Under the pieces are notes generated by a model that saw only the letters and a list, made by a program, of their open reading frames with translations, was not told where the DNA came from and did not search any database. The position numbers and the translations under genes are program-made. A stretch of DNA of 64,000 nucleotides from an uncultured Erysipelotrichaceae bacterium (lineage in GTDB: Bacteria > Bacillota_I > Bacilli_A > RFN20 > CAG-826), in NCBI GenBank assembly GCA_902800645.1, contig CADCFC010000003.1:1598-65597 (forward strand), in the 5' to 3' direction. Numbering within the stretch: the first letter of the stretch is position 1; every line of letters starts with the position of its first letter. Positions 5,433 through 33,155 of this stretch are shown in pieces.

Positions 5433-5736
5433 CGCTTATTTAAAAATCTTTCATTAACATAATCAACCATTTATACATCTTTTGTCAATTCTATTGAGAT
5501 GGAATATGTATTTTTCAAAAACATAACTTTTATATGCCTGACTATCGTTTTTTTAACTGATAGTCTTAAATCTAACAATTCACTATTTTTTGACAATGAT
5601 ATGGATATATAAAAAGCTTTATTTTTCAGTTTTCGACACAAAATAGTGACGATGAATAATAAATATAACAATATTTTTATTCTCAATAATTAGTGTTATG
5701 GAAGGTCGAACATTGAATAAAATCTGGCTAAGGAAA

Positions 5737-5837
5737 CTATATAATCTCCCACTTATAGATATCTCGGCAAGTGTTTGTCTCCGCCAACTACTAACCACAT
5801 ACAATCTCTAAGACAAACACGAGGCATGTGTCGTTTT
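5737..5837. repeat. Island repeat, copy 1 (right-hand hairpin half; a degenerate left half may extend back to ~5590)
   Basis: About 85% identical by eye to 17342..17442: ctataWaatctcc...ttatagatatYYcggcaaGTGTTTGTCT-N30-AGACAAACACgag. The 10-bp stem is 5771..5780 / 5811..5820. Confidence 0.7.
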
Positions 5838-15790: not shown

Positions 15791-15947
15791 AATAGATTCA
15801 TAATTGATAAGAATCAGCCATATAAATATAACATCGCCATCATCATTCTTGGTGAACTATTTAATGAAGGAATAATAGATATTTTTGATATAGCGGAATC
15901 TCTTATTAAATTAACAAAACTATATAATCTCCCAGTAATAGATATTT
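15791..15947. repeat. Island repeat, copy 2 (left-hand 157 nt only)
   Basis: Colinear without indels with 17213..17369 (about 85% identity by eye): aatagattcataattgataaRaatcagccatat...gatatttttgatatag...ctcttattaaatt... It diverges just before the hairpin half. Confidence 0.7.
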
Positions 15948-16208: not shown

Positions 16209-17132
16209 CTAATCCTTTGACAAAATAAATGATTTGTTTGTTTTCTTTACTATAAAATTATTTGTCTTCTCACAGCAAACAAATCCGTCACTCCCAAAAG
16301 AAATTAGTTGAAATTTCATTTCTAGTTTTGGCTGTACCATGAAAAAATTTTGAAATGCAATAATTATATTAGGAATATTATCAACAAGAAATTTTTCCCA
16401 TTTAGCTGCCTCCTGACGATAAATGATTGATTTCAATGTTGAATCAATAGGGTTGCCGTTTGACATTGAACCACCACCAGCGTTAGTTAAAACCAAGCCA
16501 TTATCAAGAACGGCAAAACCATTGATATTACATTCTCTCAGGGCCTTTATGTCATTATTAGAAAGTTCTTTAGAAGCAACGCCATTAACAATAAATGGGC
16601 TTAATAAGTTTGGCCAATTCCGATATATTATTTCCAAATAATCCTTGTCCGTAAAGCAATGAATATCATTATGATCTTTTACGGTAATGAAATATACAAA
16701 ATAATCTGTAACCCATGCGATAATCAAATGGTTGCTTCTTTGAACTCTGCCATCAGTCCTATATCTCCTGGACAAATGAAAATGGAATAAATTCCAATCA
16801 TTCAGGATACCATCGTTGTAAGTAACGTCATCATACTTTTCAGTTAAAAAGGGTTTTAAATTGTCTCCGTTAATTATTTTTATTTCAAGTTCACTCAATG
16901 CCAGCTCATATCCAGACGGACAGACAAATGAATCAGACTTTTTAACTTGTCTAGGCATTGGTTTTATTGTTTTCTTCATCATCTTAAACATTTCAATAGG
17001 TGCATTTCGATTTACTGTTGGTGAAAACCCATTATTAACAATATTGCTTTTAGCAATTTTTTCACAATCTTTTTCGAAATCAATTTCAGCAATCCATAAA
17101 TATTTTTCAGGAATTTTGGCTTTGTAAATCAT
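16209..17132 (-). CDS. Hypothetical 307-aa protein (orphan cassette between two repeat copies)
   Basis: Clean ORF with no motif I can assign. It contains WNLFHFHLSRRYRTDGRVQRSNHLIIAWV. It is flanked by repeat copy 3 upstream and copy 2 downstream. Confidence 0.55.
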   Translation of the reverse strand: MIYKAKIPEKYLWIAEIDFEKDCEKIAKSNIVNNGFSPTVNRNAPIEMFKMMKKTIKPMPRQVKKSDSFVCPSGYELALSELEIKIINGDNLKPFLTEKYDDVTYNDGILNDWNLFHFHLSRRYRTDGRVQRSNHLIIAWVTDYFVYFITVKDHNDIHCFTDKDYLEIIYRNWPNLLSPFIVNGVASKELSNNDIKALRECNINGFAVLDNGLVLTNAGGGSMSNGNPIDSTLKSIIYRQEAAKWEKFLVDNIPNIIIAFQNFFMVQPKLEMKFQLISFGSDGFVCCEKTNNFIVKKTNKSFILSKD

Positions 17133-17553: not shown

Positions 17554-19809
17554 TTAAAGACTATCTACTCTATCTTTGAATGATTTAATATCTCTCAACG
17601 AAATAGAAAGATATGGGGAAATCATCATTGTTGTAGCATGATCGATTGCGTTATACATGACTGAAAAATCATTATGAATTTGTTGGCATCTCTCAACAAA
17701 TGCATTTAATCCATGAACAGGTGTAGATTTATTTAACGAAGAAATAGAACTAATAATCGATTGGAGTCCACACGCTTTTTTCATTTTTACATCCATTATG
17801 CTTGAGGAAAAACAAGAATAACCTTTATCCACCACTTTTTTCTCAAACTCAAATTTGATAGTTTCAATCATTAATGCCTTTAAGAAGATATAGTTTATAA
17901 CATCAGAATATTTGTTGCTTCTAAACGAATTAAAAGGTCTTTTTGCAACATTCTCCCTAAATGTTACCATTAATCTAGAATCTCCATTGTAAGCTGATGG
18001 CACATTTTTATTACTATCGTGTGTCCTTACATAAAGCTGAGCCAAAGATGCTATTGTCAAAGTGCTTGTTCTATCCATATTTTTTCCCGCAAAATAATTA
18101 TTTGAACGATAATGTTCAAAACACGAAACAATCTTATCTTTAACATCATTACTCCAACCTACATCAATTTTTCCTGTTTTCGTTACAATTTCTAGATATT
18201 TCAACTTCTTAATTGTTTCTGTGTTTATGTTTCTTAGCGGAAGCGACATCGCGCAAAACATTAAATCAGGATCATAAGGGTACGTTGTCTTTTTGGTGGT
18301 AATAAAATCAACAAGAAAATACAAATCGTTTTTTCCAATCTTTTTTACCTCTTTGCTTGTGCATTTTTGATGCCAGTAATTATATGAGGAATCATTATAA
18401 ACATAATCTGGATCGTCTAAATAAAAGATGGCATCACATTTTTGAATCTCTGAGAGGTTATAAACGCATTCAAAATCATTAGTAAGCATATACCAATTAT
18501 GCAAACGCCTAAGTTTTAAAATCTTTTTTATATATTTAATGGCTAATAACTTAGTGTAATCATCATAGCTATCTATCGGATCATCAAGAATTAAAACGTC
18601 TGTGTCAGAAAAATATATTTCTGCGTAAAGCGTAACTAAAACCAATCTCTTAAATTCGCTTGTAGACAAGAATTCTTTGGCAGATTGTTTTTTGTTGTTG
18701 ATTTTAAAAACAAAGCCTTTCTTTCCATCAAGAGGTAAAATTTTAATATCATCATCAAGATGAATAATAGATCTAATCTCATTTATTACAAACAAATTAA
18801 AATTATTAATTTTTTTCAAATCTTTATTAGTTGTTCCATCTATTTCACCGATTTTGCTTTCAAGTTTATTTATTTTATCTAAACAACCAAAAATAGTGTC
18901 ATCTTCTTCTGGAATATTAATTTCTCCAATTTTATTAGACATCAAATATACATTGTCCATACATAATTGTATGTATAGCTTAAGAGCGATAAATAATTTT
19001 CTTTTATTGTTATTTGATTCTATACTATCAAATATTTTCTTAATTATTGGATTATCAGTTTTTTCCTTGAATAGAATCAGCCTTTTAACAAGGCTGTTCA
19101 TTTCTCTAACAGCGTTTTCATTTTTTATTATTTTTAATTGAGAATAGTGATTTTCAATATGTCTTATCAAAGAATTATAGTTTCTATACCTTTTTCCACA
19201 TAAAAGACATGTCTTAAAATGATTTAACTTTGAATAAAGTAGTATTGAAAAAACACTATCTTTAATCTCTTGATCTACATATAAATCATCTAGTTCGTCT
19301 TTCTCGATTTTGTCATAAGCATCATATCTATCAATAAACGATTTAATATCTAAATAAAGAGGATAATCTAAAGAAACATCCATATTTTCAATCGCACTAT
19401 CATCATAGTCTGCATATTTTTCCCTGATCCGACTTACATTCTTTTTAATGAGTTTAGGTTTATCACTTGCTTTGGTAACGTGATAAAACATTAAAACAAA
19501 ACTATTTTTAACAGCGGCCGTTAATGATTTTACCCCTAGCCCATTAACAAATGGTTTTGCTTTTTCGATTGACTCTTCGATGTGCTTCTTTTTTGTTTGC
19601 ATCTTCGCTGTTGAGCCAAGAAAAAATTCATCATCAAATTCATCAATTAAATCTTCAAGACTTTTGTTAGTAAATAATTTTACTTTTTTCCCATCTTTTC
19701 TTAGTTCATCTGCCATTTTAACGGAATTTGTAGTTTTTCCAAATCCATTAGGGGCATATATGATTGTTTTATTCCATTCTGTGAGAAAAGAGTTGCTATA
19801 TGGGTACAT
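17554..19809 (-). CDS. AAA_13-type ABC/SMC-like ATPase with a coiled-coil insert and CxxC, plus a ~340-aa C-terminal domain (RloC/PrrC-like architecture)
   Basis: Walker A is IIYAPNGFGKTT. A long helical insert contains CLLCGKRY. There is an ABC-signature-like LSTSEFKRLVLVTL, then Walker B/D-loop DVLILDDPIDSYDD. The C-terminal third is unassigned. Confidence 0.65.
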   Translation of the reverse strand: MYPYSNSFLTEWNKTIIYAPNGFGKTTNSVKMADELRKDGKKVKLFTNKSLEDLIDEFDDEFFLGSTAKMQTKKKHIEESIEKAKPFVNGLGVKSLTAAVKNSFVLMFYHVTKASDKPKLIKKNVSRIREKYADYDDSAIENMDVSLDYPLYLDIKSFIDRYDAYDKIEKDELDDLYVDQEIKDSVFSILLYSKLNHFKTCLLCGKRYRNYNSLIRHIENHYSQLKIIKNENAVREMNSLVKRLILFKEKTDNPIIKKIFDSIESNNNKRKLFIALKLYIQLCMDNVYLMSNKIGEINIPEEDDTIFGCLDKINKLESKIGEIDGTTNKDLKKINNFNLFVINEIRSIIHLDDDIKILPLDGKKGFVFKINNKKQSAKEFLSTSEFKRLVLVTLYAEIYFSDTDVLILDDPIDSYDDYTKLLAIKYIKKILKLRRLHNWYMLTNDFECVYNLSEIQKCDAIFYLDDPDYVYNDSSYNYWHQKCTSKEVKKIGKNDLYFLVDFITTKKTTYPYDPDLMFCAMSLPLRNINTETIKKLKYLEIVTKTGKIDVGWSNDVKDKIVSCFEHYRSNNYFAGKNMDRTSTLTIASLAQLYVRTHDSNKNVPSAYNGDSRLMVTFRENVAKRPFNSFRSNKYSDVINYIFLKALMIETIKFEFEKKVVDKGYSCFSSSIMDVKMKKACGLQSIISSISSLNKSTPVHGLNAFVERCQQIHNDFSVMYNAIDHATTMMISPYLSISLRDIKSFKDRVDSL

Positions 19810-20003
19810 AATATTGTTGTCTCCACTTCTTATATGATTATATCTTTAATTTGTTTGCTTAAGAAAGAGATATCTAAGGATGATTTTGGAAATTAATTCC
19901 TTATACCATTCAAAAAGAAAAAAGATTTGTCGAACCTCTTGAAACTAGAAAGAACGGGCAAATCAATAATTATAGATAGTCGGTTATTATAAATAAGTAA
20001 ATT

Positions 20004-21191
20004 CTATTTCTTCATTGACTCCAATGTGGAAATTAATTTATTCATAAAAATAGACTTACTATATTTGTTGAAGTAAACATTTTTAGAATGTTCACCAATC
20101 AATTGTAATTCTTTTGGGTTAAGATTCTTTATAAGATTCGCAAGCGATTCACTATCGCCAGATGGGCAAACAAATCCAACGTTATTATTCTTTATAAAAT
20201 TAGCACAACTCCCGTTGATAGCACCAATAATCGGCTTTCCAACCGCCATATAAGATTGAACTTTTCCTGGTATGGTCATGTTAGCATAAGGTTTATCTTC
20301 TAATGTAACAAGCATTGCATCAGCAATCTTATATAATCCTGGCATATCTTCTAATGGTCTTTGACCATAGAAAACAGCATTGTCTGTTTTTAATTCAGAA
20401 GCAAGTTTCTTAACATTATCTAATTCACTACCACTACCGACTATATGGAATTTAAAGTTTGGATCATCTTTTAATAACGCTGCTGCTCTTATAATAGTAT
20501 CTACTGATTGGGCTTTGCCAATATTCCCAGCAAACATTAGATCGATAACACCATTATCTTCGTTTTCAAAATCTGACTCTTCAAAAACAGTGTCAGCATA
20601 CTGAGGTAAATATCCAATATCTAATTCATTACAATTAGGTAATAATTTTATATAATCAATATGTTCTTTAGTACTAACCAAAATTTTGTCACACTTAGAA
20701 TATATATTAGATGATACTTTCTTATAGTGATTATAAATAAGCGAATCTTTTTTAATGCCACCCGCTAATAAGGACTCTGGCCATAAATCCATTTCATACA
20801 TCACTACTTTTTTATTATATTTCTTAGCATATTTAAGACCAGGATTAGCGCTCATAATAGGCGATAATTCATTAATTAAAACAACATCAAAATCTTTATC
20901 TAATTTATTAATTAACTTATTAGCATAGTGAGGAAAAGACCAATAGTTAAGAAATCTAAACAATATTCCATGTCTTCTCCCTATTTCTTTAGCGCGAATT
21001 ATCTTCACACCATTATGCTCTTGTACTCTATTTTTTCCGTGTTTGTAGTCATCAAAAATATATCCTTTTGGATAATTTGGGAGGCCACATAAAACAGTTA
21101 CTTGATGTCCTAAAGAAACTAAAGATTCCGCTATATCAGTAATACGGAAGTTTTCGGGCCAAAAGCGTTGCGAAATAATTAATATTTTCAT
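20004..21191 (-). CDS. GT-B (GT4, WbuB/WcaI-like) glycosyltransferase
   Basis: MKILIISQRFWPENFRITDIAESLVSLGHQVTVLCGLPNYPKG is a typical WbuB-like N-terminus. ATG 21191..21189 overlaps the upstream TGA (an ATGA junction); the track start at 21203 is an upstream in-frame alternative. Confidence 0.75.
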   Translation of the reverse strand: MKILIISQRFWPENFRITDIAESLVSLGHQVTVLCGLPNYPKGYIFDDYKHGKNRVQEHNGVKIIRAKEIGRRHGILFRFLNYWSFPHYANKLINKLDKDFDVVLINELSPIMSANPGLKYAKKYNKKVVMYEMDLWPESLLAGGIKKDSLIYNHYKKVSSNIYSKCDKILVSTKEHIDYIKLLPNCNELDIGYLPQYADTVFEESDFENEDNGVIDLMFAGNIGKAQSVDTIIRAAALLKDDPNFKFHIVGSGSELDNVKKLASELKTDNAVFYGQRPLEDMPGLYKIADAMLVTLEDKPYANMTIPGKVQSYMAVGKPIIGAINGSCANFIKNNNVGFVCPSGDSESLANLIKNLNPKELQLIGEHSKNVYFNKYSKSIFMNKLISTLESMKK

Positions 21192-22399
21192 TTTTTTATG
21201 CACAATAATTCTTTTATTAGATTCAAATAGTTTGTAAGCATTACCTGCTTTGAAAATAAAATATCATCCTGAAATGAATAATTTAATTCACCATTTGCCA
21301 TTTTTTGCATCATTTCAAATGCGCCAATATAATCACCTTTTTCAACAGCAAACCTTTGGTCAATCATTTCACACGAACCGCCGGTTTTGTAAGAAATAAC
21401 TGGGCATCCACAACAAAGCGCTTCTAAATTAACAGTTGGATAATTATCGTCGTAAGTTGGATTGAAAAACACGAAAGCAGACGAATATAACATCGCTAAT
21501 TCTTCTGGGCTATTCAGTCGATCAATGTGGTATATAGAATCAATTAACGGAATGTTGGGATTAATTTTCCCAACAATAATGATTTGAAAGTCATCTGAAA
21601 TTAGTTTTCCTAATGAAAGAATATCATTTAATCCTTTTTTTTCATTAAAAACACTGGCAACACATAAAATAATTTTCTTATCACTAAATTGTTTATTATC
21701 TTCAAAGTAGATATTTGTCTTATGGAATATTTTTGTATCAATCCCGTTGTTAATAACACGAATATCGTTTTTCTTAAAAAAGGATTCCTTTACAAGATTT
21801 GACATCCAAATAGAAGGAGTAACAATTACACCATCTTTGATCTTTGAAAATAAACTTTTTTTCAATAAATAATTGCGTTTTGAATTATCAAATAAAACCG
21901 AAGACGGATATTCATTTTTGCAAGGGCAACGATAGCATTGAGTTTTCCATTTTTCACATTTTTTATTGGCAAAATGCGCACAATGGCCTGTAAAATTCCA
22001 ACAATCATGAAAAACAAAAATGCTCTTTGTTTCACTATTAGCAATCCATTTTAAAAGAATCTTAATGTCTAAATAATATCCGTGCAAATTATGAGAGATA
22101 ATTAAATCGGGTTTAAATTTTGAAAGCATTTTAACTAATTTTTTTGTCGAAAAAAAAGAGCAAAAACCAGAATTGTCAAGTATTCTAGAGCTTAATGCGT
22201 GAATAGGCACCGAGAAGGGGAGCGAAAAGTTAGTTACATTTTTTTCTGTTTGTTTTACCTTCATTTTTCTTCCAAAAAAAACACGTGTTTCAAAACCACT
22301 CTTTTGAAGAAATTCATTAAGTTCAAAACATATTCTACCCGTTGACCCATATCGATAAACAGAGTTAATAATGGCAATTTTAAATTTCTTATTCATCAT
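21188..22399 (-). CDS. GT-B (GT4) glycosyltransferase
   Basis: C-terminal donor-binding region: FFNPTYDDNYPTVNLEALCCGCPVISYKTGG. Confidence 0.7.
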   Translation of the reverse strand: MMNKKFKIAIINSVYRYGSTGRICFELNEFLQKSGFETRVFFGRKMKVKQTEKNVTNFSLPFSVPIHALSSRILDNSGFCSFFSTKKLVKMLSKFKPDLIISHNLHGYYLDIKILLKWIANSETKSIFVFHDCWNFTGHCAHFANKKCEKWKTQCYRCPCKNEYPSSVLFDNSKRNYLLKKSLFSKIKDGVIVTPSIWMSNLVKESFFKKNDIRVINNGIDTKIFHKTNIYFEDNKQFSDKKIILCVASVFNEKKGLNDILSLGKLISDDFQIIIVGKINPNIPLIDSIYHIDRLNSPEELAMLYSSAFVFFNPTYDDNYPTVNLEALCCGCPVISYKTGGSCEMIDQRFAVEKGDYIGAFEMMQKMANGELNYSFQDDILFSKQVMLTNYLNLIKELLCIKK

Positions 22400-22883
22400 A
22401 TTCTTTGATTTCTTTTTGAAACGAACTGCCTACTAATGAATTAGGCTTAATATTTTTGTTTACAAAGCAACACGCCGCTACAACAGAAGAGTGTCCAATG
22501 ACTATATCTCCCAGCAATGTTGCTCTTGAACAAATCCAACAGCCATCTTCAATTACAATTGTAAGTTGATGACCAGCACCAGCCCTACGACTAGAATTTC
22601 CTATTTCGTGAGTTCCAGTTAATAAAACAACATGCGGGGCAACATCAACATTATTACCAATTTCAACGATACCATTTCCTTCGATTGAAAAGTCTCTTCC
22701 TATCCATGTTCCAGTCTTAACATAAAAGGAATTGATTTTTCCAAAAAAAATAGGTCCAACTATTTTAACATTCTTTTCTATTTTTACGTTTCTAATTGAA
22801 TTGAGCAAAAATCTTTTAAGTCTAAAGAATCTTGTTTTCGATAAAAAGTGATTTATAACAAATAAAACAAAGTTTCTCCACAT
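22389..22883 (-). CDS. Hexapeptide-repeat (LbH) sugar O-acetyltransferase, WcaF-like
   Basis: Hexapeptide-type repeats: IGNNVDVAPHVVLLTGTHE...IVIEDGCWICSRATLLGDIVIGHSSVVAACCFV. Confidence 0.75.
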   Translation of the reverse strand: MWRNFVLFVINHFLSKTRFFRLKRFLLNSIRNVKIEKNVKIVGPIFFGKINSFYVKTGTWIGRDFSIEGNGIVEIGNNVDVAPHVVLLTGTHEIGNSSRRAGAGHQLTIVIEDGCWICSRATLLGDIVIGHSSVVAACCFVNKNIKPNSLVGSSFQKEIKEYDE

Positions 22884-22984
22884 ATATTGAATTATACAAT
22901 AACCTTCTTTTTTTTAAAACAAATTATCTTTAAGATAAATGATATTTGAAATAATAATTAATGTATGATTAAATCAAATGTAGA

Positions 22985-24091
22985 ATGAAATCAAATGTCT
23001 TGTTAATAACTAATCTTCCATCATCATATTTTGTCGAATATGCAAATGAATTAGGCCGATATCTCGATTTAACAGTTGTTTTTGAGCGTGATTACGATTT
23101 GCACAAGAAGAAGGCGTCTGGTTACAATTTTGATAGCATGACTTTTAAGACTCTTTTTTTAACTAAAAGTAAAAGTAAAAAGGAAGATATCTTAACATTT
23201 AAATTAAGATTTTTCTTAAAGAAACAATATAGAAAATATAATAGAATTGTTTTTTGCAACCCTTGCTCTCCTACATCAATTCTTGCAGAACTATATTGTA
23301 TCAAAAAAAATATTCCCTATTGTGTCCAAAGCGAAGGAGGTTTCCCAAAAAACGGAAACGGTATCAAAGAAAAGATTAAAAAAATCATATATAAAAATGC
23401 ATCTTTATACCTAACAGGGATGCTTAATGAAAATAACTATTTTCTTCATTATGGTGCAAAAGAAAACAAACTTCGAAAGTACAATTTTTCTTCATTGCAT
23501 GAAAGCGATATACAAACCAGAGTTATCGCCGAAGAAGAAAAACAACAATTAAGGAAAAAACTCGGAATAAATGGAAAACGACTCGTACTGTGTGTAAGTC
23601 AAGTTATCCAAAGGAAAGGTATTGATACACTAATAAGGGCGGCTGCAGAGTTTAATGATGATGTTGCTTTTTATGTTATTGGAGGGAAACCAGATTATTA
23701 CTATTCTTCTCTAATTAAAGACTTAAAAATACGTAATTTTTATTTTGTTAAAAGAATATCTAAAGACTTGTTAAGCCTTTACTATAAGGCTGCTGATTTA
23801 TTTATATTGTTAACAAGGGAAGATGTGTGGGGTTTGGTTATAAACGAAGCAATGGCGTATGGGCTACCTGTTATAACAACAAACAAATGCCTTGCTGGTG
23901 TACAATTGATTAAGGATCTCGAAAATGGTTTTATAATTGATAGTGATGATTATAAATTGGCACGAGACAAAATTATTTTTTTACTCAACGATGAAAAGCT
24001 GAGAAAAAGGATTGCTATTGCAAATTTAAAAAAAATTAAAAATTACACGATTGAAAGAATGGCGGAAACAATTGCCAATTATCTCAAATAA
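22985..24091 (+). CDS. GT-B (GT4) glycosyltransferase
   Basis: RKGIDTLIRAAAEF...LLTREDVWGLVINEAMAYGLPVITTN (EX7E-type region). Confidence 0.75.
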   Translation: MKSNVLLITNLPSSYFVEYANELGRYLDLTVVFERDYDLHKKKASGYNFDSMTFKTLFLTKSKSKKEDILTFKLRFFLKKQYRKYNRIVFCNPCSPTSILAELYCIKKNIPYCVQSEGGFPKNGNGIKEKIKKIIYKNASLYLTGMLNENNYFLHYGAKENKLRKYNFSSLHESDIQTRVIAEEEKQQLRKKLGINGKRLVLCVSQVIQRKGIDTLIRAAAEFNDDVAFYVIGGKPDYYYSSLIKDLKIRNFYFVKRISKDLLSLYYKAADLFILLTREDVWGLVINEAMAYGLPVITTNKCLAGVQLIKDLENGFIIDSDDYKLARDKIIFLLNDEKLRKRIAIANLKKIKNYTIERMAETIANYLK

Positions 24092-24092
24092 T

Positions 24093-25265
24093 ATGAAAAA
24101 GATCGCTTTTTTTATGTCATCATTGAAAATTGCTGGTGTTGAGCAAGCGCTGGTCAACTACATTAATTTTCTCAACGATAGTTTTCCTTCACACCAAATA
24201 CATTTATATCTATTAAAAAAAGAAGGTGAACTTCTCAATGAGCTTAATTCCAATTGCCTTGTACACGAAATAATTATGGATAATCACGATAAAAAACTAC
24301 TTTTTTTGGGTGGATTTAAAGAATCGATCAAATATTATTTAAAGAGGTTAAAAATACTTTCTGCTCTTCGAATTGCTTTTAGAAGAATCGTTTTACACCG
24401 CATAGATTATGATTTAATAAACTTCGAAAAGATAGAAAGCATTACAAATCAATTTGATGTAGCAATTTGTTATATGGCTCACATGCCATTTTTGATAAAA
24501 TACGTTATTTCCAAAGTAACAGCTAAACAAAAATCTTTATTTATTCACAGTGACTTTGTTAAAACTGGTTATCGAATTGATTATTTTAAAAAATATATTA
24601 CTCTTTATGAAAACTTCTGCTGTGTTTCAAAAGACCTTGAGAAACAATTTTTAAATATTTATCCAGAATTAAAATCTAAGACTTGTGTAATTCATAATTT
24701 TTTTCCTTACAAAAAAATAATTTTAAACTCCAATAAAGAAACAATACAAAAGGACGCTAATAAATTAAATCTTTTGACCGTAGGTAATTTTACCAAAGAA
24801 AAAGGGTATGACATTGCGATTAAAACGGCCAACATTCTCAAGTCTCGCAACATTAATTTTTGCTGGACAATGATAGGCGACGGGAAAGAACTTAAAAAAA
24901 TGCTATCTCTAACAAAGAAATGGGGCTTATCTGATTATTTAGTTTTTAAAGGCAAATTGAGCAATCCATATCCATATTACAAAGCTTGCGATTTATATGT
25001 TCAAACTTCAAAAACAGAAGGTTATTGCACCACGGTCGTAGAATCAAAACTATTCAACAACAAAATTATTACAACTAATGCTCCAGGAATGAAAGAAATA
25101 TTGACTAACTATAAACAAGCAATCATATGCGACTCTTTTAATCCAACAACAATCGCTGATCAAATTGTTCTTTTATCAAATTATTCTGGTAGCAAATCAA
25201 TATTTGATCCAAAAGAGTACAACAACACTATTCTAAAAATTTCAAAAACCGTCTTCAACCTTTAG
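24093..25265 (+). CDS. GT-B (GT4) glycosyltransferase
   Basis: KEKGYDIAIKTA...VQTSKTEGYCTTVVESKLFNNKIITTN. The start is set at ATG 24093 (MKKIAFFMSSLKIAGVEQAL), directly after the TAA of the previous gene; the track start at 24051 overlaps that gene. Confidence 0.7.
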   Translation: MKKIAFFMSSLKIAGVEQALVNYINFLNDSFPSHQIHLYLLKKEGELLNELNSNCLVHEIIMDNHDKKLLFLGGFKESIKYYLKRLKILSALRIAFRRIVLHRIDYDLINFEKIESITNQFDVAICYMAHMPFLIKYVISKVTAKQKSLFIHSDFVKTGYRIDYFKKYITLYENFCCVSKDLEKQFLNIYPELKSKTCVIHNFFPYKKIILNSNKETIQKDANKLNLLTVGNFTKEKGYDIAIKTANILKSRNINFCWTMIGDGKELKKMLSLTKKWGLSDYLVFKGKLSNPYPYYKACDLYVQTSKTEGYCTTVVESKLFNNKIITTNAPGMKEILTNYKQAIICDSFNPTTIADQIVLLSNYSGSKSIFDPKEYNNTILKISKTVFNL

Positions 25266-26215
25266 ATGCGTTTTAAAATAAGTTTTAATTTAAGATATTT
25301 AATAAAGTATTTAATGCCTAGAGGCGCGTTTTTCTTAATTAGTAAAGTGGGATATGCATTTAGTGTCTTTCTCAGCTTTGCTTTTTCACTATCTGAGAGT
25401 AACGAAATCTTAATATGCCAGACAGTGTCAAGCAAAGTTTTTGAATAATTTTTCAATAAAAAAGAGAACAATTCATTATAATTATTAAGCGATAATTGCA
25501 TATTATTAATGTCCGAAATTCTTAACAAACAAGCTTGCTGCATGCCTATAGCTGTTTTGTTAGTAATTCTTTTTCTCAAAATAGAATCAGGGTTGTCCCT
25601 ATAGAAATACAAACTGCAGTCTAATACAGCAACCTTATTTGCATTTAAAAAGGTTTTATAAATTGTCGCAACATCTTCGTATAAGGAAATGTCTTCTGGA
25701 TAACGAACGGATTCCCAAAGATAAGCTTTGTACATCTTCACACAAGAAAAAGAAAAAATTTCATTTTTAAAAAGTTTAAGTAACGCTTCTTCTCTTTCAC
25801 AAACGCACATTAAACCGTTGTCCTCAAAACAATTTTCTATACACGTCACATTTCCTGTTGCAATATCGGAATTTGTGTTAATTATAATTTTCAAATAACT
25901 ATTAATAAAATGAGGAGATAAAACATCGTCCGAATCTAGAAAAACAAAATACGAATCTCGTATAATGTTGGCATATTTTTCAAAAATATAATTTAGAGCA
26001 AAATTTCTTGCTGAAGAACTGCCGCCGTTATTTTTATTAAGTATTACATAATTATCAAATTTTAAATAATTCTCCAAAATATAGTGTGAAGAATCAGTTG
26101 AACCGTCGTTAACACAAACAACAAAAATATTCTTATACGTTTGCGCAAATACGGAGTCCAAGCACTCTTTCAAATACTTCTCGCTGTTAAATACAGGAAT
26201 AATAACAAAAACCAT
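25262..26215 (-). CDS. Family-2 glycosyltransferase
   Basis: VIIPVFNSEKYLKECLDSVFAQTYKNIFVVCVNDGSTDSS and FLDSDD (DxD motif). Confidence 0.8.
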   Translation of the reverse strand: MVFVIIPVFNSEKYLKECLDSVFAQTYKNIFVVCVNDGSTDSSHYILENYLKFDNYVILNKNNGGSSSARNFALNYIFEKYANIIRDSYFVFLDSDDVLSPHFINSYLKIIINTNSDIATGNVTCIENCFEDNGLMCVCEREEALLKLFKNEIFSFSCVKMYKAYLWESVRYPEDISLYEDVATIYKTFLNANKVAVLDCSLYFYRDNPDSILRKRITNKTAIGMQQACLLRISDINNMQLSLNNYNELFSFLLKNYSKTLLDTVWHIKISLLSDSEKAKLRKTLNAYPTLLIKKNAPLGIKYFIKYLKLKLILKRI

Positions 26216-29055
26216 TAAATTGAAATCTCCAAATAAATATCGATAGTTTGTGGTTTTTTGGCAGAGCTAAATTCACACTGAAACAAGTTGAAACTATCTT
26301 TTTTAATTACATAAAGTAAAAGCCATATTAATGAAACAATAATTAATGGAATTGAAGAGAACAAAACAGGATAAAGAGCCTTTAAGATTAGAGATATCAC
26401 AATATTAATTATAACGACAGCCCCAACAAAAATAGCAGATAAATAAAGTTTTCTTTTTGCGGTTAATTCAAGGAATAGAACATAGCATATGACAGACATA
26501 AAATTAAAGAGAAAGGAACTGACAATTCGTATTTTTAGCAAGTAGTCATTATAAGAATAGTTTCGGCATATTATTCTATAATTTAAAGAAATAGATGGGT
26601 CTTTTTTGGAAACCAGTTCTACAGGAATACTGCCATAGGAGATAGCGGCTCTTGTTAAATAATTATCTACTATTCCATTTTTGTTGAAATAAGCTCTTCC
26701 TTCTGTTTGTCTAGCATCAAATCTCAAATCTTCCAATTCAACTGGATATATCTTCCCATTATCATATTCTATATAAACGTCGATTTTTTTAATCGTTCCA
26801 ATAGTCCACCAATAATCGTGGTTTATAAATTTGAGAGGTTTAATGGATTTAATATGAAAATTATATGTTTTAATAATATCGTTGTTAGACAATGATGCTA
26901 TTTTCAAAAATGCTTCACCACCGCCATTACATTTTATTTCCTTTGACAAAGGAAAGTAACTCAAGTTATTTGAATGCTCTACTTTTATGCCTTGATCAAC
27001 TTTACTACTTCCAAAAATGTCTGTTAGAGAAATAATATCCTTCTCGTATAAAGTATCTGGAATTACAAGATTGATTGATTCTGGAGGTATTAAAACGGTA
27101 TCAGAAACCGATAGGTGAATTTGGTTTGTGCTGTATACCGTATTATGTGGACCAACAATAGAAGCAGTAATAAAACAACTACCATTATTTTTGGTTCTTA
27201 AATAAGAATTATTAATTATTTCGCAGACATTGTTATCTGAAGAAGAAAAAGTAATATTGGCATTATAACCACAGTACTTTTCGTTATAAAATAAAGCCCG
27301 TGTCTCATTTATATCCATATCTATATGTTCGTCTAAAGAGAAAGATGTTGGATCTGTAGAAATGAGAAGATTATTCAATGAGTATTGTTCATAATCTACT
27401 ATTCTAACTACAATTTCCTTATATATTTTTTTTCTAAGTAAGGTTGCAGAAATTGTTACGCTTCCTGTTCTCTTTGCTTTCGCATTACCTGTCAATGGAT
27501 CAATTTCCAATATTGATGAATTGTAGCTTAGCCAAGACACCTCCTTATCTGTTGCTTCAGCAGGTGCTACAGAAGAAGTAAACAAGACTTCCTGACCAAC
27601 AAACATTTCTGATACAGAATTAATATCGATGGTTTTTGGCTCGATATATGTCGCGGGAGTTTTATCGGCTGGCAAAAAATCGACAACTTGCTTTGAAAGA
27701 GAGTTGTATTGAGGTGGAAGAAGCATAAAAGAAAAGGAGACAACACTTAAAATTCCCAACATTGTTGAAATAAATACTTTTTTAGAAGTAATCCGTTCAA
27801 CAATTCGATCATGATAAACCTTTTTGAATAGCACAGAATCAAAGCAATTTGATGAATATGAGATTCCTAACAACAACCAAAAAATAAAGATTTTAGCACC
27901 AGGACCATAAAAGCCATATCCTTCAAACAGTGAATTAAAAATAAAAAAGACGACAAGATTTTTTAATAAATAGCTTTCGTACGTATTTAGAGACGTATTT
28001 TTTTTCAGGAGGAAAAAGGGGGAGATTAAAATAGGGAGAAACATCAATGTTCCAATAATTCCGTAGCAACAAACAATCAAAATTGGCATGCAATCAACAT
28101 ATGTTGTGCCAGAACCAAGAAATGGTTGAAATTTAGAAAATTGATAGATAATTTCTTCGATTCTTCCAGATGATAAAGCGCTAATTACATCTGTTGTTTT
28201 GTTGTTTAACAAAATTTTAATAATAATCAAATTATTCAGATAAGGCACTGAAACAATTAAAGCAACTGCCGCAATCGCCAAAAAGCAAAACATCAGGCGA
28301 TAAAAAATTGACTTTACATAATCAAAATAAAATACAAACACATAAATGAATATGAAAAATATGACTGCGCGACATTTTAAAAGAAATATTATAGTAGAAA
28401 AAAACAATAGAACACCAACATCTAAAACAATGTTAAACCAAGATTTTGTTTTATATTTCAAAGTATAGAAGTGAAACAGAATAACGGCGATAAACAAAAT
28501 TGGCCCGGCTGAATTTTTTGATGAATAAGCGTAAATTTGTTTTGAAAGATCATAGCCAAATAGGCTACTCAAATAAATATAAATTGCTAATAACAAAGTT
28601 GAAACAACATAAATGATTATAATGTATTTGAGGTGAATGTCTTTATTTATAACATAACCAGCACAGCATCCGATAAGAAATAAAACCAATGAAACGAATA
28701 CAGTTCTAGTAAAACCGTTTGAATAAGATGGGACACCAGCAACGCCAGAAATTAATAAATACACCAAAAACGGAATCGCTATTGTAAAAACCAATAATAA
28801 AGATTTAAAAAATTTCTTATAGTTCAACAGTATAAGCGGAATTAAAGTAACTACCCAAATGACAATTGCCATAGAATTAAGATTTCGACTAACGAACACT
28901 GGCGCTTGTAGTGAGATAGTGGCAAAAGCAGAAATATAGATTAATAAAATAGAAGCAAAATAAAGACATTTTTGGTATTTGTTCCCTGTTGTACACAAAA
29001 ATGATTTAAAAAAATCAGTGAATCCTTTTTTAATTGAATTATTTAATAATTTCAT
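26215..29055 (-). CDS. Wzy/O-antigen-polymerase-like polytopic membrane protein fused to a ~400-aa Big_2-containing extracytoplasmic region and a C-terminal TM bundle
   Basis: The first ~440 aa are about a dozen hydrophobic helices. Then comes a soluble region including VGQEVLFTSSVAPAEATDKEVSWLSYNSSILEIDPLTGNAKAKRTGSVTISATL (Big_2-like). It ends with 2-3 further TM helices (VICYVLFLEL..., AIFVGAVVIINIVISLIL..., IPLIIVSLIWLLLYVI). Confidence 0.6.
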   Translation of the reverse strand: MKLLNNSIKKGFTDFFKSFLCTTGNKYQKCLYFASILLIYISAFATISLQAPVFVSRNLNSMAIVIWVVTLIPLILLNYKKFFKSLLLVFTIAIPFLVYLLISGVAGVPSYSNGFTRTVFVSLVLFLIGCCAGYVINKDIHLKYIIIIYVVSTLLLAIYIYLSSLFGYDLSKQIYAYSSKNSAGPILFIAVILFHFYTLKYKTKSWFNIVLDVGVLLFFSTIIFLLKCRAVIFFIFIYVFVFYFDYVKSIFYRLMFCFLAIAAVALIVSVPYLNNLIIIKILLNNKTTDVISALSSGRIEEIIYQFSKFQPFLGSGTTYVDCMPILIVCCYGIIGTLMFLPILISPFFLLKKNTSLNTYESYLLKNLVVFFIFNSLFEGYGFYGPGAKIFIFWLLLGISYSSNCFDSVLFKKVYHDRIVERITSKKVFISTMLGILSVVSFSFMLLPPQYNSLSKQVVDFLPADKTPATYIEPKTIDINSVSEMFVGQEVLFTSSVAPAEATDKEVSWLSYNSSILEIDPLTGNAKAKRTGSVTISATLLRKKIYKEIVVRIVDYEQYSLNNLLISTDPTSFSLDEHIDMDINETRALFYNEKYCGYNANITFSSSDNNVCEIINNSYLRTKNNGSCFITASIVGPHNTVYSTNQIHLSVSDTVLIPPESINLVIPDTLYEKDIISLTDIFGSSKVDQGIKVEHSNNLSYFPLSKEIKCNGGGEAFLKIASLSNNDIIKTYNFHIKSIKPLKFINHDYWWTIGTIKKIDVYIEYDNGKIYPVELEDLRFDARQTEGRAYFNKNGIVDNYLTRAAISYGSIPVELVSKKDPSISLNYRIICRNYSYNDYLLKIRIVSSFLFNFMSVICYVLFLELTAKRKLYLSAIFVGAVVIINIVISLILKALYPVLFSSIPLIIVSLIWLLLYVIKKDSFNLFQCEFSSAKKPQTIDIYLEISI

Positions 29056-31040
29056 TTTTGTGATTCCTCGGCAAGATTACGTTTAATAAAAGATATTGAA
29101 GGATTATTATTGACTTTTGCGTAAGTTTCTTTCAAATCAATAATCTTTTCATATTCTAAATCAACACATATTTCACTAAACAAAGAAATAATTCTAGAAT
29201 CCATACCTTCCCTTTTAATAATATAAACCTTCTTTCCATATATGATAGAGAAGACAATTGCGTGAAATGAATCAGTAATAATAAGCGACGATTCTTTTAT
29301 TAATTTAACAAAATCAAAATGATTAACTGAATTATACTTTGAGGATTTGTCTCGTAAATCAATGACGCTACTAGTTGAAATATTATCGATAATTTGTTTG
29401 TTTTCATCACCTAGTATATAAATAAGAGTGAAGTCGGACGGCAAATCAATTTTTGAATATTTTGTCAAAGCAACATCCCAATCAAACCGTTTCAATAATA
29501 ATGTAGGATCTAAAGTAAGCTGGCAAGGTACTTTTAATTTGTTTAAAATTGTCACACCGGCGCATTCTCTTACACCAATCGATTTAAAAGATGAAAAACC
29601 CTCAAGATAAAAACGTTTAATCTCTTCAGGCAAATACGAAACACCAAAAGAGGCTCCATAAGCTATTTTTTTGTTGTTATCCAAACCATCAACAATCCCC
29701 AATGTAAATAGTAAGTCAGTTGTATGATACGACCAATTCCAAATTTGGTCGCTACCATATATTAAATATTCAAACGAATTTAGCTGCTTTATTGAAGAAA
29801 CGGAGTTATTAAAATATGAGTTTTTTTCACCACTTTTGATTGAGGCTTTATAAATATGTTTATATTTCTTTGATTTAACAAAGCATTTCAAAAACCTTAT
29901 ATAATTCAATAGAGGAAAACACCATCTATCTGCCAATTCGTCATACTTAAGATTGTATGCAGAAAAACCCATCCGATTCAAAATAGTTCTCAAGGCATAG
30001 TTTTGCAATCTATTACCAAAATTCGAATAGCCAAAATCTGTTATAATTCCTATTTTTTTCTTATATTTATTTATTCGAATTGGTCTAGGAAACAAGCGAA
30101 TAATCGATGACAAAAATGATCTCATCACTCGCTTGCCATTATTAGTATTACCCCCTATAAACAGTTGAATCGTTTTAGCAAAACCATTTTTGTTTAATGA
30201 ATCATCAAAGTCGTTCTTATTACTTGGTCTAACAGCAGAAGAATAATACGAGATGTTAGGTTTTAAAGAAATTGAATAAGAAACTTCTCTCACCTTGCAT
30301 TTAAATTTCAAAGCATCTAATAAACCAAATTTATCGTTTCTAATAACAACTAAAGACACACCATGTTTATCATATAAAGATGGATAGGATTGTTTTATGC
30401 CCCAAAAATCTCCTAAAGTGATGTCTGAAAATCTATGTTCGCCTTTAAATTTGCAAGAATAACAAGATTCCATGAGAATATAGTCATGCAAAAAAGCTCT
30501 CATGTATGCATTACGGTTATGCCTTTGGCAAATACCATTTATTTCTACAAAATAGTTTTCCCAAGAATGTCTTTTTTTTCTAAAATTAGTACTATTTATG
30601 CAATTAATAGAACCAAACTTTTCTTTTATATACATATCCCAATATTTTTTTAGTGGAACTCCGTGGCAAATGGTATCACAAGTAACTAGATTATCCAGCG
30701 AAACATTTTTTAATTCTAGATATTTTTTTAGAGCATATATTTGGCAAGGTGTCCCCGCAAATAAAACTTTTTGATTGTTCTCTAAATCATGTAAGCATTC
30801 GTTAAACGTATGTTTTAGATCGCTTGCAACATACTTGGTTGACATAACTGAATATAAATCATCAATTGAAGAGACTCTTTTGTGAAAAACATTGCCATGT
30901 TCTATTGTGACACCATAAACAAAGCCTCCAGAAGTTAGTATTTTGCTTGCGAGATAATAAAAAGCTCCACCACTTGATGATTGGCTAAGTATCTTCTTAT
31001 TCTTCGATATTACAGCAAAGCATCTTGGAAGTTCGTTCAT
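29052..31040 (-). CDS. Fusion of an FrhB/FdhB-like (F420-hydrogenase beta-like Fe-S flavoprotein) domain and a polysaccharide pyruvyl transferase domain
   Basis: N-terminal half: SQSSSGGAFYYLA, CDTICHGVP, CYSCKFKG. C-terminal half: GSDQIWNWSY and a CsaB/WcaK-like tail. The ATGA junction couples it to the next gene. Confidence 0.65.
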   Translation of the reverse strand: MNELPRCFAVISKNKKILSQSSSGGAFYYLASKILTSGGFVYGVTIEHGNVFHKRVSSIDDLYSVMSTKYVASDLKHTFNECLHDLENNQKVLFAGTPCQIYALKKYLELKNVSLDNLVTCDTICHGVPLKKYWDMYIKEKFGSINCINSTNFRKKRHSWENYFVEINGICQRHNRNAYMRAFLHDYILMESCYSCKFKGEHRFSDITLGDFWGIKQSYPSLYDKHGVSLVVIRNDKFGLLDALKFKCKVREVSYSISLKPNISYYSSAVRPSNKNDFDDSLNKNGFAKTIQLFIGGNTNNGKRVMRSFLSSIIRLFPRPIRINKYKKKIGIITDFGYSNFGNRLQNYALRTILNRMGFSAYNLKYDELADRWCFPLLNYIRFLKCFVKSKKYKHIYKASIKSGEKNSYFNNSVSSIKQLNSFEYLIYGSDQIWNWSYHTTDLLFTLGIVDGLDNNKKIAYGASFGVSYLPEEIKRFYLEGFSSFKSIGVRECAGVTILNKLKVPCQLTLDPTLLLKRFDWDVALTKYSKIDLPSDFTLIYILGDENKQIIDNISTSSVIDLRDKSSKYNSVNHFDFVKLIKESSLIITDSFHAIVFSIIYGKKVYIIKREGMDSRIISLFSEICVDLEYEKIIDLKETYAKVNNNPSISFIKRNLAEESQK

Positions 31041-32554
31041 ATTTTTAAAACCTTCTTCATATATTCTTTTTCCTGTTTGTTAAGGCCAACCAGCCCAACC
31101 GAAATAAGATAAATAGAGGAAAAAGATAAAATGCTCTTTATAAATGTAAGCCAGTTAGAGTATCCGTTAATCATAAGCAAAACACCAATTGCAATTGGAA
31201 GGATAGTGGACGGCAAAGTTTTTAAAATATTCTTCCAAAAGAAAGCCATATCTATTTTTATATTTTTTTCATAATAAATATTCATAATAATGATGTTTGC
31301 TACAATAATTGAAATTGTTGTGCCAAACGCAACACCAACCACGCCAAAATAGTAGCAACATAAAATACTAATGCCAACATTAATAAAAGCCATTATCAAA
31401 TAAATAATGCTTCTAAATTGGTGTTTATTTTTGGCTCTTTGTATTTCTATTCCAGTATTCTGAATTAAAGGGACTATCTCGGGGACCATTAGCAACAAAG
31501 CAACATAATAGCTCTGTTCATAACCTGGTCCAGCCCAATGGTTAATAAAAAACTGACCAAAAAAAATAAAACCAGAAAGAATAAAAAACAAAACAAAAAA
31601 TTGAATGCGACCAACCTTGGTCATTAAATTTGTTAATTCTAAATCACAAGTCGCTTTGCCTTCACTAACAATTCTATTGATTCTAGGTGAGAACAATGAA
31701 GATATGGCAGTACTAAATTGAATAAAATATGTATTAAAAATTGCTCCAATAGCATAAATAGACACTGCAGAACTAGAAATCATACGCCCAAGTATTACTT
31801 TGTCTGTTTGCCAATTGATCTGATCAATTATTTGATTAATAGCAATAAAAATAGAAAATACAAAAATGTCCTTAAATAAACCTTTTTCAAATCCTTTTAT
31901 AGCAATTTTCATCTTAAGTTTTTTAAAGCAAAACAAAACGTTGATGATATCAACCGTAATTGAAACAAAAATAGTGATAGCAACCAAGCCTACTGAACCA
32001 TAACCAAAATATAAGGCAACAATAGAAAGAATGGGAGACAAAATCGTTTTCCCCATATTCAATAATTTTTCAAAAACGAATTGCTCTTGGCTGATAACGT
32101 ATCCTGAAAAAAGGCTCATCGGAAATGATATAGCTAAATTAATCGATAATAATATCATTAAATATTTAGCGGTATTTAGATTACTCTGGGTGTATGTTTC
32201 ATTAAAAAAAATTTTTACATTAAAAGAGAGGATTAATCCGGCGATAAGAGCCACTATTCCGATTCCACAAAAAACAACAAAATATAATCCGTTTAAACTC
32301 GCTATTTTATCAGGCTTGTTTTTTTTATATATCGAATAGAACCTTATATAACTAGCTCCAAGCCCAAGCGAAAATAAAGAAAGATAAGAAACTATTGATA
32401 TTGCAAGGTTATAAAGCCCATATTCAGACTGTCCTAAAATTTTAAGCATGAAAGGCGTATATACCAAACTAATTATTATGCTTAAAGCCATCTGAACGTA
32501 CTGAAGAATGCTTCCTAAACTTATTTGTCTATTCATGCTTACCTTCCACTTCAT
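31037..32554 (-). CDS. wzx: Wzx-type polysaccharide flippase (MOP superfamily)
   Basis: About 500 aa with ~12-14 TM helices and a typical oligosaccharide-flippase N-terminus (SLGSILQYVQMALSIIISLVYTPFMLKILGQSEYGLY). The likely start is the internal MNRQ at 32536. Confidence 0.7.
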   Translation of the reverse strand: MKWKVSMNRQISLGSILQYVQMALSIIISLVYTPFMLKILGQSEYGLYNLAISIVSYLSLFSLGLGASYIRFYSIYKKNKPDKIASLNGLYFVVFCGIGIVALIAGLILSFNVKIFFNETYTQSNLNTAKYLMILLSINLAISFPMSLFSGYVISQEQFVFEKLLNMGKTILSPILSIVALYFGYGSVGLVAITIFVSITVDIINVLFCFKKLKMKIAIKGFEKGLFKDIFVFSIFIAINQIIDQINWQTDKVILGRMISSSAVSIYAIGAIFNTYFIQFSTAISSLFSPRINRIVSEGKATCDLELTNLMTKVGRIQFFVLFFILSGFIFFGQFFINHWAGPGYEQSYYVALLLMVPEIVPLIQNTGIEIQRAKNKHQFRSIIYLIMAFINVGISILCCYYFGVVGVAFGTTISIIVANIIIMNIYYEKNIKIDMAFFWKNILKTLPSTILPIAIGVLLMINGYSNWLTFIKSILSFSSIYLISVGLVGLNKQEKEYMKKVLKI

Positions 32555-33152: not shown

Positions 33153-33155
33153 ATT

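Follow-up and report, generated by a model that had tools for sequence, protein, structure and literature searches.

P0001, a candidate single-polypeptide defence protein of a rare family whose ATPase is related to that of the anticodon nuclease RloC

Suicide nucleases gated by an ATPase, such as PrrC, RloC, Lamassu and PARIS, figure prominently in phage defence, and few of their effector domains have been characterised. PrrC, a protein of about 396 residues, has no coiled-coil or hook insertion and is always found in a type Ic hsd locus, by which it is silenced. In RloC the nuclease triad is C-terminal and reads Arg-x3-Glu-x36-52-His, often with Ser before the His (PMC2610378), and activation of the nuclease requires ATP hydrolysis (PMC3458546). 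The Lamassu protein LmuB carries a Walker B variant, E to Q, that impairs hydrolysis (bioRxiv 10.1101/2025.03.14.643221). Here we describe P0001, a protein of 751 residues encoded at 17554..19809 on the minus strand of a 64,000-nucleotide stretch of DNA from an uncultured Erysipelotrichaceae bacterium (contig CADCFC010000003.1); the whole of this stretch is called the window below. An earlier note, made from the sequence alone, had described the protein as a RloC/PrrC-like AAA_13 ATPase with an unassigned C-terminal domain. With moderate confidence, we regard P0001 as a stand-alone, single-polypeptide defence protein of the abortive-infection type, belonging to a rare, undescribed family with kinship to RloC, the Rad50-like anticodon nuclease. 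It is a plausible new variant of the ATPase-controlled suicide nucleases, of the RloC or Lamassu kind, that act against phages, and its effector chemistry is putative.

The gene product and its ATPase head

The gene is made up of 751 uninterrupted codons from ATG to stop, and the opposite (plus) strand of 17554-19809 is stop-rich. An open frame of this length in DNA of 28% GC, together with 17 homologues and about 50 representative clusters, puts the gene far beyond chance; it is present once in the source genome (1.3 Mb, 60 contigs, about 30% GC). That genome shares its class with small genomes in which TGA encodes Trp, and so comes from a Mollicutes-like member of Bacilli. The protein of the earlier note is a real, intact open reading frame (ORF), and its strand is now fixed as minus.

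AlphaFold2 models the full protein (predicted local distance difference test score, pLDDT, 85.9; predicted template modelling score, pTM, 0.70) with an ATP-binding cassette (ABC) head of the SMC/Rad50 type. When this model was compared with PDB by Foldseek, the best match was Lamassu LmuB (9hqx_B, E 3.2e-4, prob 1.00); further matches were 9hqu_A/B, also LmuB, Smc2, cohesin and condensin heads, and Rad50. For profile-profile comparison, a set of RloC-type AAA_13 proteins was assembled from genomes of the source genome's class (L019-L027). These have a CPFC hook, GPNGSGKS, LSEGE, DDPISSLD, THN and R-x3-E-x37-49-S-H, a signature that matches exactly the definition of Davidov and Kaufmann (PMC2610378). 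A second AAA_13 sweep of the genomes, made to extend this profile, returned only the same loci. With four of the set, the P0001 family aligned at 97.9% and E 3e-13 in hhalign over the stretch from signature to H-loop (residues 342-446); with an LmuB-like set (alignment A5) the values were lower, 93.7% and E 2e-7. The nearest outgroups of the family profile are likewise the AAA_13 proteins P0091, P0095, P0104 and P0112, along with the LmuB-like ABC-3C proteins P0089 and P0097. On the strength of the fold matches and the profile-profile scores, therefore, the ATPase of P0001 is a Rad50/SMC-type ABC head with RloC-type proteins as its nearest sequence relatives. PDB sequence searches with P0001, the family profile and the tail profile gave only chance C2H2 and SusD matches. 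The parts of the gene that encode the head and its insertion are as follows.

17554..19809, minus strand: complete gene of P0001, 751 residues and stop (translation; single copy in the genome)
19609..19809, minus strand: N-lobe of the ABC head, residues 1-67, including Walker A (AlphaFold2 model, alignment)
19729-19755, minus strand: Walker A APNGFGKTT, residues 19-27 (N21, G24 and K25 invariant in 50/50)
18766..19608, minus strand: helical arm inserted in the head, residues 68-348 (AlphaFold2 secondary structure; Foldseek matches to LmuB, SMC and Rad50)
19195..19209, minus strand: CxxCG zinc-hook motif C201-L-L-C204-G205 at the arm apex (alignment; sub-threshold Rad50_zn_hook, zf-C2H2 and PADLOC LmuB matches)
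18361..18765, minus strand: C-lobe of the ABC head, residues 349-483 (AlphaFold2; hhalign to RloC-type proteins over residues 342-446)
18655-18669, minus strand: signature LSTSE, residues 381-385 (exact-coordinate translation)
18559-18594, minus strand: Walker B/D-loop LILDDPIDSYDD, residues 406-417 (exact-coordinate translation)
18478-18483, minus strand: H-loop position T443-N444, with Asn in place of the switch His (translation, alignment)

Conservation was judged from an alignment of 50 family sequences (A2) and from a set of 54 in which outgroups are added to A2. Invariant in A2 are N21, G24, K25, G65, S384, D409, D410, P411, S414, D416, R526, H566, H724 and P732; C201, C204, G205, E385, K387, R388, R618, K652, E656, N720 and Y733 are near-invariant. 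The ABC motifs of the AAA_13 clade (GxNGxGK[ST], a signature of LSxGE type and hhhhDDPxxSxD) thus appear in P0001 as APNGFGKTT, LSTSE and LILDDPIDSYDD, each invariant or near-invariant in the family. All the motifs that the earlier note had quoted, these three and CLLCG at residues 201-205, were recovered by translation at exact coordinates and are conserved in the alignment. Its lengths needed revision: the helical insertion proper spans about residues 68-348 in the AlphaFold2 model, some 280 residues and not about 370, and consists of many short or medium helices, not of a single long coiled coil.

It should be noted that matches to SMC, cohesin, condensin and Rad50 heads, and the weak SMC_N and RecF-type matches among family members, are also what a housekeeping protein of DNA repair or chromosome maintenance (SMC, Rad50, SbcC or RecN-like) would give. 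We strongly disfavour such a role and consider it very improbable. The arm is much shorter than that of Rad50 or SMC, and P0001 has an extra, catalytic-looking tail of a kind unknown in repair SMC proteins; evidence from the gene's distribution is given below. As to the grouping of the ATPase, a point on which the earlier note had said its reading could fail, the profiles place it nearest to RloC-type AAA_13 proteins, and by fold its matches are LmuB, SMC heads and Rad50.

The CLLCGKRY that the earlier note had placed in the zinc-hook position of RloC does lie at the tip of the arm, flanked in the AlphaFold2 model by helices 180-196 and 211-224; C201 is present in 48 of the 50 family sequences and C204 in 49. 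The family consensus is CPLCG, which the LmuB-like set A5 has as well. Pfam Rad50_zn_hook gives sub-threshold matches in 12/50 members, and the PADLOC LmuB model matches the P0001 hook below threshold (E 0.0029), which is the nearest approach to a hit when P0001 is run against PADLOC. In P0001 the stretch CLLCGKRYRNYNSLIRHIENH (19147-19209) is a complete C-x2-C-x12-H-x3-H pattern (C201, C204, H217, H221), and Pfam zf-C2H2 matches at E 0.0025, below its cut-off. H217 occurs in 5/50 sequences and H221 in 8/50, and the two together only in P0001-P0003. A C2H2 zinc finger is therefore ruled out as a family feature; that feature is CxxCG, and a Rad50-type hook with two Cys is the ancestral state. 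At residues 201-221 of P0001 the model has a beta-hairpin and a helix. We speculate that an intermolecular zinc hook may have been converted to an intramolecular finger of C2H2 type in the P0001 clade.

At the H-loop, P0001 has T443-N444 and lacks the THN switch (linchpin) His that follows Walker B in this clade. Across the family this residue is Asn in 30/50 and His in 20/50 sequences, and two subfamilies can be told apart: A, with 31 members including P0001, has H-loop Asn and mostly Asp before His724; B, with 19 members, has H-loop His and mostly Ser before His724. Residues 444 and 723 covary almost cleanly in A2 (Asn with Asp in A, His with Ser in B), which hints that the ATPase and the active site of the tail are functionally coupled. 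Since subfamily B shows the states of RloC, subfamily A looks derived. Given the change from His to Asn, the switch in the subfamily of P0001 may rely on the binding of ATP to a greater degree than on its hydrolysis, as has been proposed for the Walker B variant of LmuB. The two subfamilies amount to a natural experiment, in which the switch residue is His or Asn and the putative catalytic His is preceded by Ser or Asp.

The C-terminal domain as a candidate effector

AlphaFold2 strands at 438-443, 460-465 and 478-483 carry the head to about residue 483, so the tail comprises residues 484-751, 268 residues in place of the 340 of the earlier note. Modelled alone, it is all-alpha and predicted with confidence (pLDDT 88.2, pTM 0.88). 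Its features are the following.

17557..18360, minus strand: family-specific all-alpha C-terminal domain, residues 484-751, candidate effector (domain model)
18112..18234, minus strand: first conserved pair of the tail, R526 (18232-18234) and H566 (18112-18114) (invariant in 54/54)
17842..17856, minus strand: K652-F-E-F-E656, a [K/R]-x3-E motif on the long helix 635-666 (position 652 Lys or Arg in 52/54, position 656 acidic in 54/54)
17638..17652, minus strand: N720-A-I-D-H724, an N-x2-[S/D]-H motif ending helix 701-727, then P732-Y733 (H724 in 54/54, N720 in 51/54; hhalign to RloC (I/V)N(D/E)GSH)

Besides R526, H566 and H724, which do not vary across the 54 sequences, P732 is kept in 53 of them and R618 and K685 are near-invariant, in a domain that is otherwise poorly conserved (mean column identity 29% in A2). 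The invariant Arg, His and His have the look of a catalytic core.

A lead to what this core might be comes from RloC. RloC-type proteins read N-x2-R-x3-E followed by (I/V)-N-(D/E)-G-S-H, subfamily B reads L-I-N-D-Y-S-H-G, and P0001 itself reads K652-x3-E656-x67-D-H724. The outgroup relatives carry R-x3-E, and in one of them, P0092, the Glu-to-His spacing is 46. The order of elements seems to be shared with RloC, whose side was judged by eye from sequence: a helix with basic-x3-Glu, short helices, a helix ending in N-x3-H, a loop and a final helix. When subfamily B and the outgroups were aligned by hhalign with the C-domain of RloC, P was 0.0012-0.003, against 0.2 for a reversed control, and the His motifs were paired. 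With the insertion at 667-700 deleted, K652, E656, N720 and H724 pair with the R, E, N and H of RloC, yet P is about 0.017. The likeness of the tail to the nuclease triad of RloC is thus weak (P about 0.001-0.02) and may be called suggestive. That the last 120 or so residues are a diverged RloC-type nuclease core is, to judge from these alignments, a proposition that falls a little short of an even chance. The earlier note had suggested that the tail may be a different effector: it was right that the domain is unrecognisable, whereas that it is wholly different is in doubt, given the [K/R]-x3-E ... N-x2-[S/D]-H pattern in those same residues. For the first 145 or so residues of the tail, with the invariant R526, H566 and R618, no counterpart was found anywhere in the searches made.

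A number of results weigh against reading P0001 as an RloC-related suicide nuclease, and they are gathered here. As regards the head, the Pfam AAA_13 model (PF13166) does not match P0001 in hmmscan even at E<=1, and a six-frame AAA_13 search of the source genome did not pick up the gene. Weak AAA_13 matches occur in 5/50 family members (best E 1.4e-4; the gathering cut-off is 36 bits). The distant full-length relative P0094, which aligns with the family profile over 684 columns at 99.2%, scores 34.5 bits on AAA_13 and bears the database tag PF13166.13. Because the model does not detect the protein, P0001 fails formal membership of AAA_13; what holds of the earlier note's assignment is the layout and the RloC-type nearest kin. 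Asn at the H-loop could also mean a poor ATPase. As regards the tail, its fold has no significant match in PDB (best E 0.98), and no significant match to a HEPN fold: the HEPN toxins HepT and SO_3166 appear in that search at ranks 5, 21 and 38, with E 2.9-7.9 and template modelling (TM) scores of 0.18-0.38. The canonical HEPN motif Rx4-6H is absent, there being no conserved Arg 5-7 residues before H566 or H724. Aligned by hhalign with the C-domain of RloC, the whole-family tail gives no significant score (prob 0.4-2.7%, P 0.017-0.14). The spacing of E656 to H724 is 67 residues as against 36-52 in RloC, the basic residue is mostly Lys and not Arg, and in the subfamily-B alignment K652 and E656 do not fall on the R and E of RloC. 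Lastly, the defence role of P0001 is argued wholly from guilt by association.

Searches with the tail in other collections gave the same outcome, with no significant match in PDB sequences, Pfam, NCBIfam, PADLOC or PHROGs, and with E 2.5 as the best fold match in BFVD. The earlier note's view that the domain is unrecognisable is therefore borne out by every library and fold search used, among them the profile and structure searches against HEPN and other effector folds that it had proposed. PDB holds no structure of RloC or PrrC, so an RloC-like fold of the tail could still be reconciled with the negative fold search. Kinship with the HEPN tails (Rx6H) that two AAA_13 proteins, P0091 and P0112, carry was considered and rejected (hhalign prob 0.2%); a search to enlarge that comparison set returned only the query itself. 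Comparison of the first half of the tail with the second revealed no internal duplication.

Alternatively, the same ATPase switch might control a tail that is not an RNase or RloC-type nuclease at all. Such a tail would be a new effector that works by a different chemistry (a DNase, for instance, or a hydrolase of nucleotide or NAD type) or a sensor or adaptor for a phage component; in the sensor case, the toxic output would come from a partner in trans or from the ATPase clamping DNA. We see this as a serious minority view. It is suggested by the absence of significant HEPN or nuclease-fold matches and of a significant whole-family alignment with the RloC C-domain, by the length of the tail, at 268 residues twice that of the RloC and PrrC nuclease domains (about 130-150 residues), and by its own invariant block of R526, H566 and R618, which RloC does not have. 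A KAP-family NTPase encoded directly upstream of the homologue in one subclade (L011, L013/L014) would suit a partner in trans, although no partner gene is conserved across the 11 homologue loci described below. Invariant Arg, His and His with Lys, Glu and Asn, amid a mean identity of 29%, are moreover the signature of a catalytic site and not of a binding surface, and the shared N-x2-S-H together with the covarying, RloC-like states of subfamily B argue for descent from an RloC-type nuclease.

Returning to the favoured reading, that of a single-polypeptide defence protein related to RloC, a mechanism can be proposed by analogy with RloC (PMC2610378, PMC3458546) and LmuB (bioRxiv 10.1101/2025.03.14.643221). 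The CxxC tips would bind zinc and either join two protomers or lock the arm, and in the resting state this zinc joint would keep the tail inactive. Release of the tail would then follow from a cue linked to the phage, for instance DNA ends or abnormal DNA, in combination with engagement of the heads driven by ATP. The tail would be a metal-independent phosphodiesterase, most likely an RNase and possibly one that acts on the tRNA anticodon loop, with catalysis by His724 together with Glu656 and Lys652, and perhaps by His566 with Arg526. Translation would stop, and the infection would be aborted.

A more specific proposal, to which we attach a low probability, is that the tail is a new effector domain in which a much-diverged RloC-type His/Glu/Lys core (about 635-751) is joined to a new N-terminal module (484-630, with R526, H566 and R618), giving a composite active site with two His under a hook-bearing ATPase. 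In the lineage of P0001, this ATPase would have become a switch that works by ATP binding only, and its zinc hook would have turned into a finger of C2H2 type. If this were true, the family would document the stepwise rewiring of a Rad50-like sensor-nuclease and supply a new catalytic fold in bacterial immunity.

Two observations on related proteins may be added. One RloC-type AAA_13 protein of 767 residues (L022; G058:C17) keeps R-x3-E but reads NDSSA, not NDGSH, so that Ala stands at the position of the triad His; it may be a nuclease-dead RloC. The AAA_13-related hook ATPases L028 and L030 (G222) have DDPxSSYD and neither the THN H-loop nor the RloC triad; they are more tail variants on the same ATPase chassis.

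Distribution and genomic setting

Seventeen relatives came to light among 5.8 billion proteins; they are 24-90% identical over the full length, 16 of them with 734-760 residues and one a fragment of 549, and none has a Pfam domain or a name. Run against 1.84 billion cluster representatives, the family profile gave 105 matches, of which about 47 are full-length (705-781 residues) and the others fragments. The family amounts to about 50 clusters, all of roughly 705-806 residues. This exhaustive search revealed no case of the P0001-type tail joined to another architecture. The distant full-length relatives P0094, P0128, P0129 and P0092 keep both the architecture and the motifs of the tail. P0001 and 50 family members have no significant match in Pfam, NCBIfam, PHROGs or PADLOC, the last being a further check that the earlier note had suggested. 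Of 399 genomes sampled from across the phylum, two have the gene; three from the same genus lack it, and one homologue sits in a Muribaculaceae metagenome-assembled genome, that is, in another phylum. The family is thus rare and undescribed, and occurs in gut Bacillota and Bacteroidota; its rarity, and the cataloguing of many RloC-like variants that is already under way, make any practical value modest. A homologue in the P0010 cluster appears to be split into two ORFs on one 756-kb contig, P0125 (481 residues) and P0127 (269 residues), and is probably a frameshifted, decaying copy.

This distribution also bears on the housekeeping alternative. A repair or chromosome-maintenance protein would hardly be confined to 2/399 genomes of its phylum and absent from the three sampled of its own genus. 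The source genome has a separate SMC-like ORF of 1178 residues elsewhere (L005), and no nuclease partner of the Mre11/SbcD type is encoded next to P0001.

The first 20 kb of the window is a stack of defence genes: a phosphoesterase-STAND gene (like PDC-S60/DS-8), AbiD/Abi_2, a pair encoding a large protein and a kinase, AbiH, and a gene like PD-T4-7. The P0001 gene ends this stack and adjoins a polysaccharide-synthesis cluster, its immediate neighbours being the PD-T4-7-like gene and a glycosyltransferase gene. The former encodes 307 residues (16209-17132, minus strand) and matches the PADLOC PD-T4-7 models at E 6e-32, and is therefore a recognisable defence candidate. In keeping with the earlier note, no restriction-modification genes lie next to P0001 in the window, and the island has no hsd genes. 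The candidate expression signals of the gene are listed here.

19821..19842, minus strand: TATAAT-like hexamer (19837-19842) and GGAG Shine-Dalgarno sequence (19821-19824) (consensus match)

The GGAG candidate lies 11 nt before the ATG, and both signals fall within an intergenic gap of 194 nt upstream of the gene; from these consensus matches, the gene probably has its own promoter.

Eleven distinct homologue loci, the window included, were examined. Defence-type neighbours are present in nine or ten of them, namely Abi_2 with a methyltransferase, Fic, an SLFN-like helicase with HNH, a KAP NTPase, NOV_C, AAA_15/21, three TIR genes of the ThsB type (Thoeris) with Shedu SduA_C, and an AAA_21 pair with ResIII. 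In the L001 locus the homologue stands alone amid metabolic genes. A small adjacent ORF or partner was searched for across the 11 loci, and no gene is conserved beside the family. Distribution and context taken together are what fits an autonomous defence gene that moves horizontally, and not a repair SMC. The KAP-family gene of the one subclade mentioned above lies 28-29 nt upstream of the homologue, intact in L011 (428-1699) and split in L013 (7658-8973)/L014, and may be a local operon partner or merely a conserved neighbour.

A mobile gene could instead serve the mobile element itself, as an ABC ATPase for maintenance of a plasmid, integrative and conjugative element or island, for partition or addiction, or in association with conjugation. 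Some AAA_13 members are annotated with functions of this kind. We consider such a function improbable for P0001. The patchy distribution and horizontal transfer would be accounted for, as would the position of the gene in a variable island punctuated by repeats and an IS66 TnpB fragment near one homologue; however, the neighbours are defence genes and not genes of transfer or replication, the L001 homologue stands between metabolic genes, and no homologue was found in 72,556 plasmid or 50,697 phage records, nor any match in PHROGs. An origin of the gene from phage or plasmid was itself rejected on these zero matches.

Immediately downstream of the P0001 gene (17213-17442) there is a repeat of some 230 nt, with partial copies in the same orientation at 15791-15946 (87% identity) and 5731-5837 (84%); its copies flank the PD-T4-7-like gene in the manner of a cassette boundary. 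Genes for capsule or polysaccharide (glycosyltransferases, Wzy, epimerases and LicD) abut the gene and its defence island in 5/11 loci (window 20004-35051; L002, L003, L013 and L016), and defence islands in these gut bacteria seem to gather at the variable edge of surface-polysaccharide loci.

Should P0001 prove active, the RloC paradigm would come to include a new effector architecture, carried by Bacillota and Bacteroidota of the gut; otherwise the gene would be one more unannotated member of an island.

Comparison with known systems

The ABC-HEPN fusions (the APECO1_4465 and ERFG_01251 groups; Anantharaman et al. 2013, PMC3710099) resemble P0001 in having an N-terminal ABC ATPase with a C-terminal, all-alpha putative RNase, and in their mobile defence contexts. 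They differ in their Rx4-6H motif (YRxVSPxxHDD in P0091 and P0112); the P0001 tail has no such motif and no detectable similarity to theirs. The PrrC protein of E. coli (prr/EcoprrI) is like the scheme proposed for P0001: its C-terminal RNase, which has an Arg-Glu-His triad, is under the control of an ABC-type NTPase and serves in abortive infection. Unlike PrrC, P0001 has 751 residues, with an arm of 280 residues and a hook, and no adjacent restriction-modification genes.

Lamassu LmuB (the sensor of LmuACB/DdmABC; PDB 9hqx, 9hqu) shares with P0001 an SMC/Rad50-like head and a hook-tipped arm, and provides its best structural matches. The LmuB-like A5 proteins and the P0001 family have the same CPLCG hook consensus. 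Both LmuB and P0001 belong to a defence context, and in each a residue is replaced in a way that should slow ATP hydrolysis: in LmuB it lies in Walker B (E to Q), in P0001 in the H-loop (H to N). Lamassu, however, consists of three genes, with a separate effector, LmuA, and the kleisin-like LmuC, whereas the candidate effector of P0001 is fused in cis and no gene, LmuA and LmuC included, is conserved beside the family in the 11 loci. The arm of P0001 is also shorter than that of LmuB, and the profile-profile score is lower than that to RloC.

RloC (a wobble-nucleotide-excising anticodon nuclease of AAA_13, with its prototype in Geobacillus kaustophilus; PMC2610378, PMC3458546) stands nearest. 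The hook of P0001 is CLLCG (CPLCG in the family, as in the LmuB-like A5 proteins), as against CPFCQ in RloC; the H-loop residue of its subfamily is Asn and not His; and the protein is not detected by the AAA_13 model. The tail of P0001 is about twice as long, with an extra N-terminal module that carries the invariant R526, H566 and R618, and a Glu-to-His spacing of 67 as against 36-52. For the rest the two are alike. Each is a single polypeptide, usually without a restriction-modification partner and encoded by a laterally transferred accessory gene. In both, the ABC head carries Walker A, a signature of LSxxE form and a Walker B/D-loop DDPxxSxD, and a helical insertion bears a CxxC hook (for which zinc binding is predicted in P0001). 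Both also have an additional all-alpha C-terminal domain, where the likeness of the basic-x3-Glu ... N-x2-(S/D)-His pattern is suggestive. Of the systems compared, it is RloC that is the closest profile-profile relative of the P0001 ATPase.

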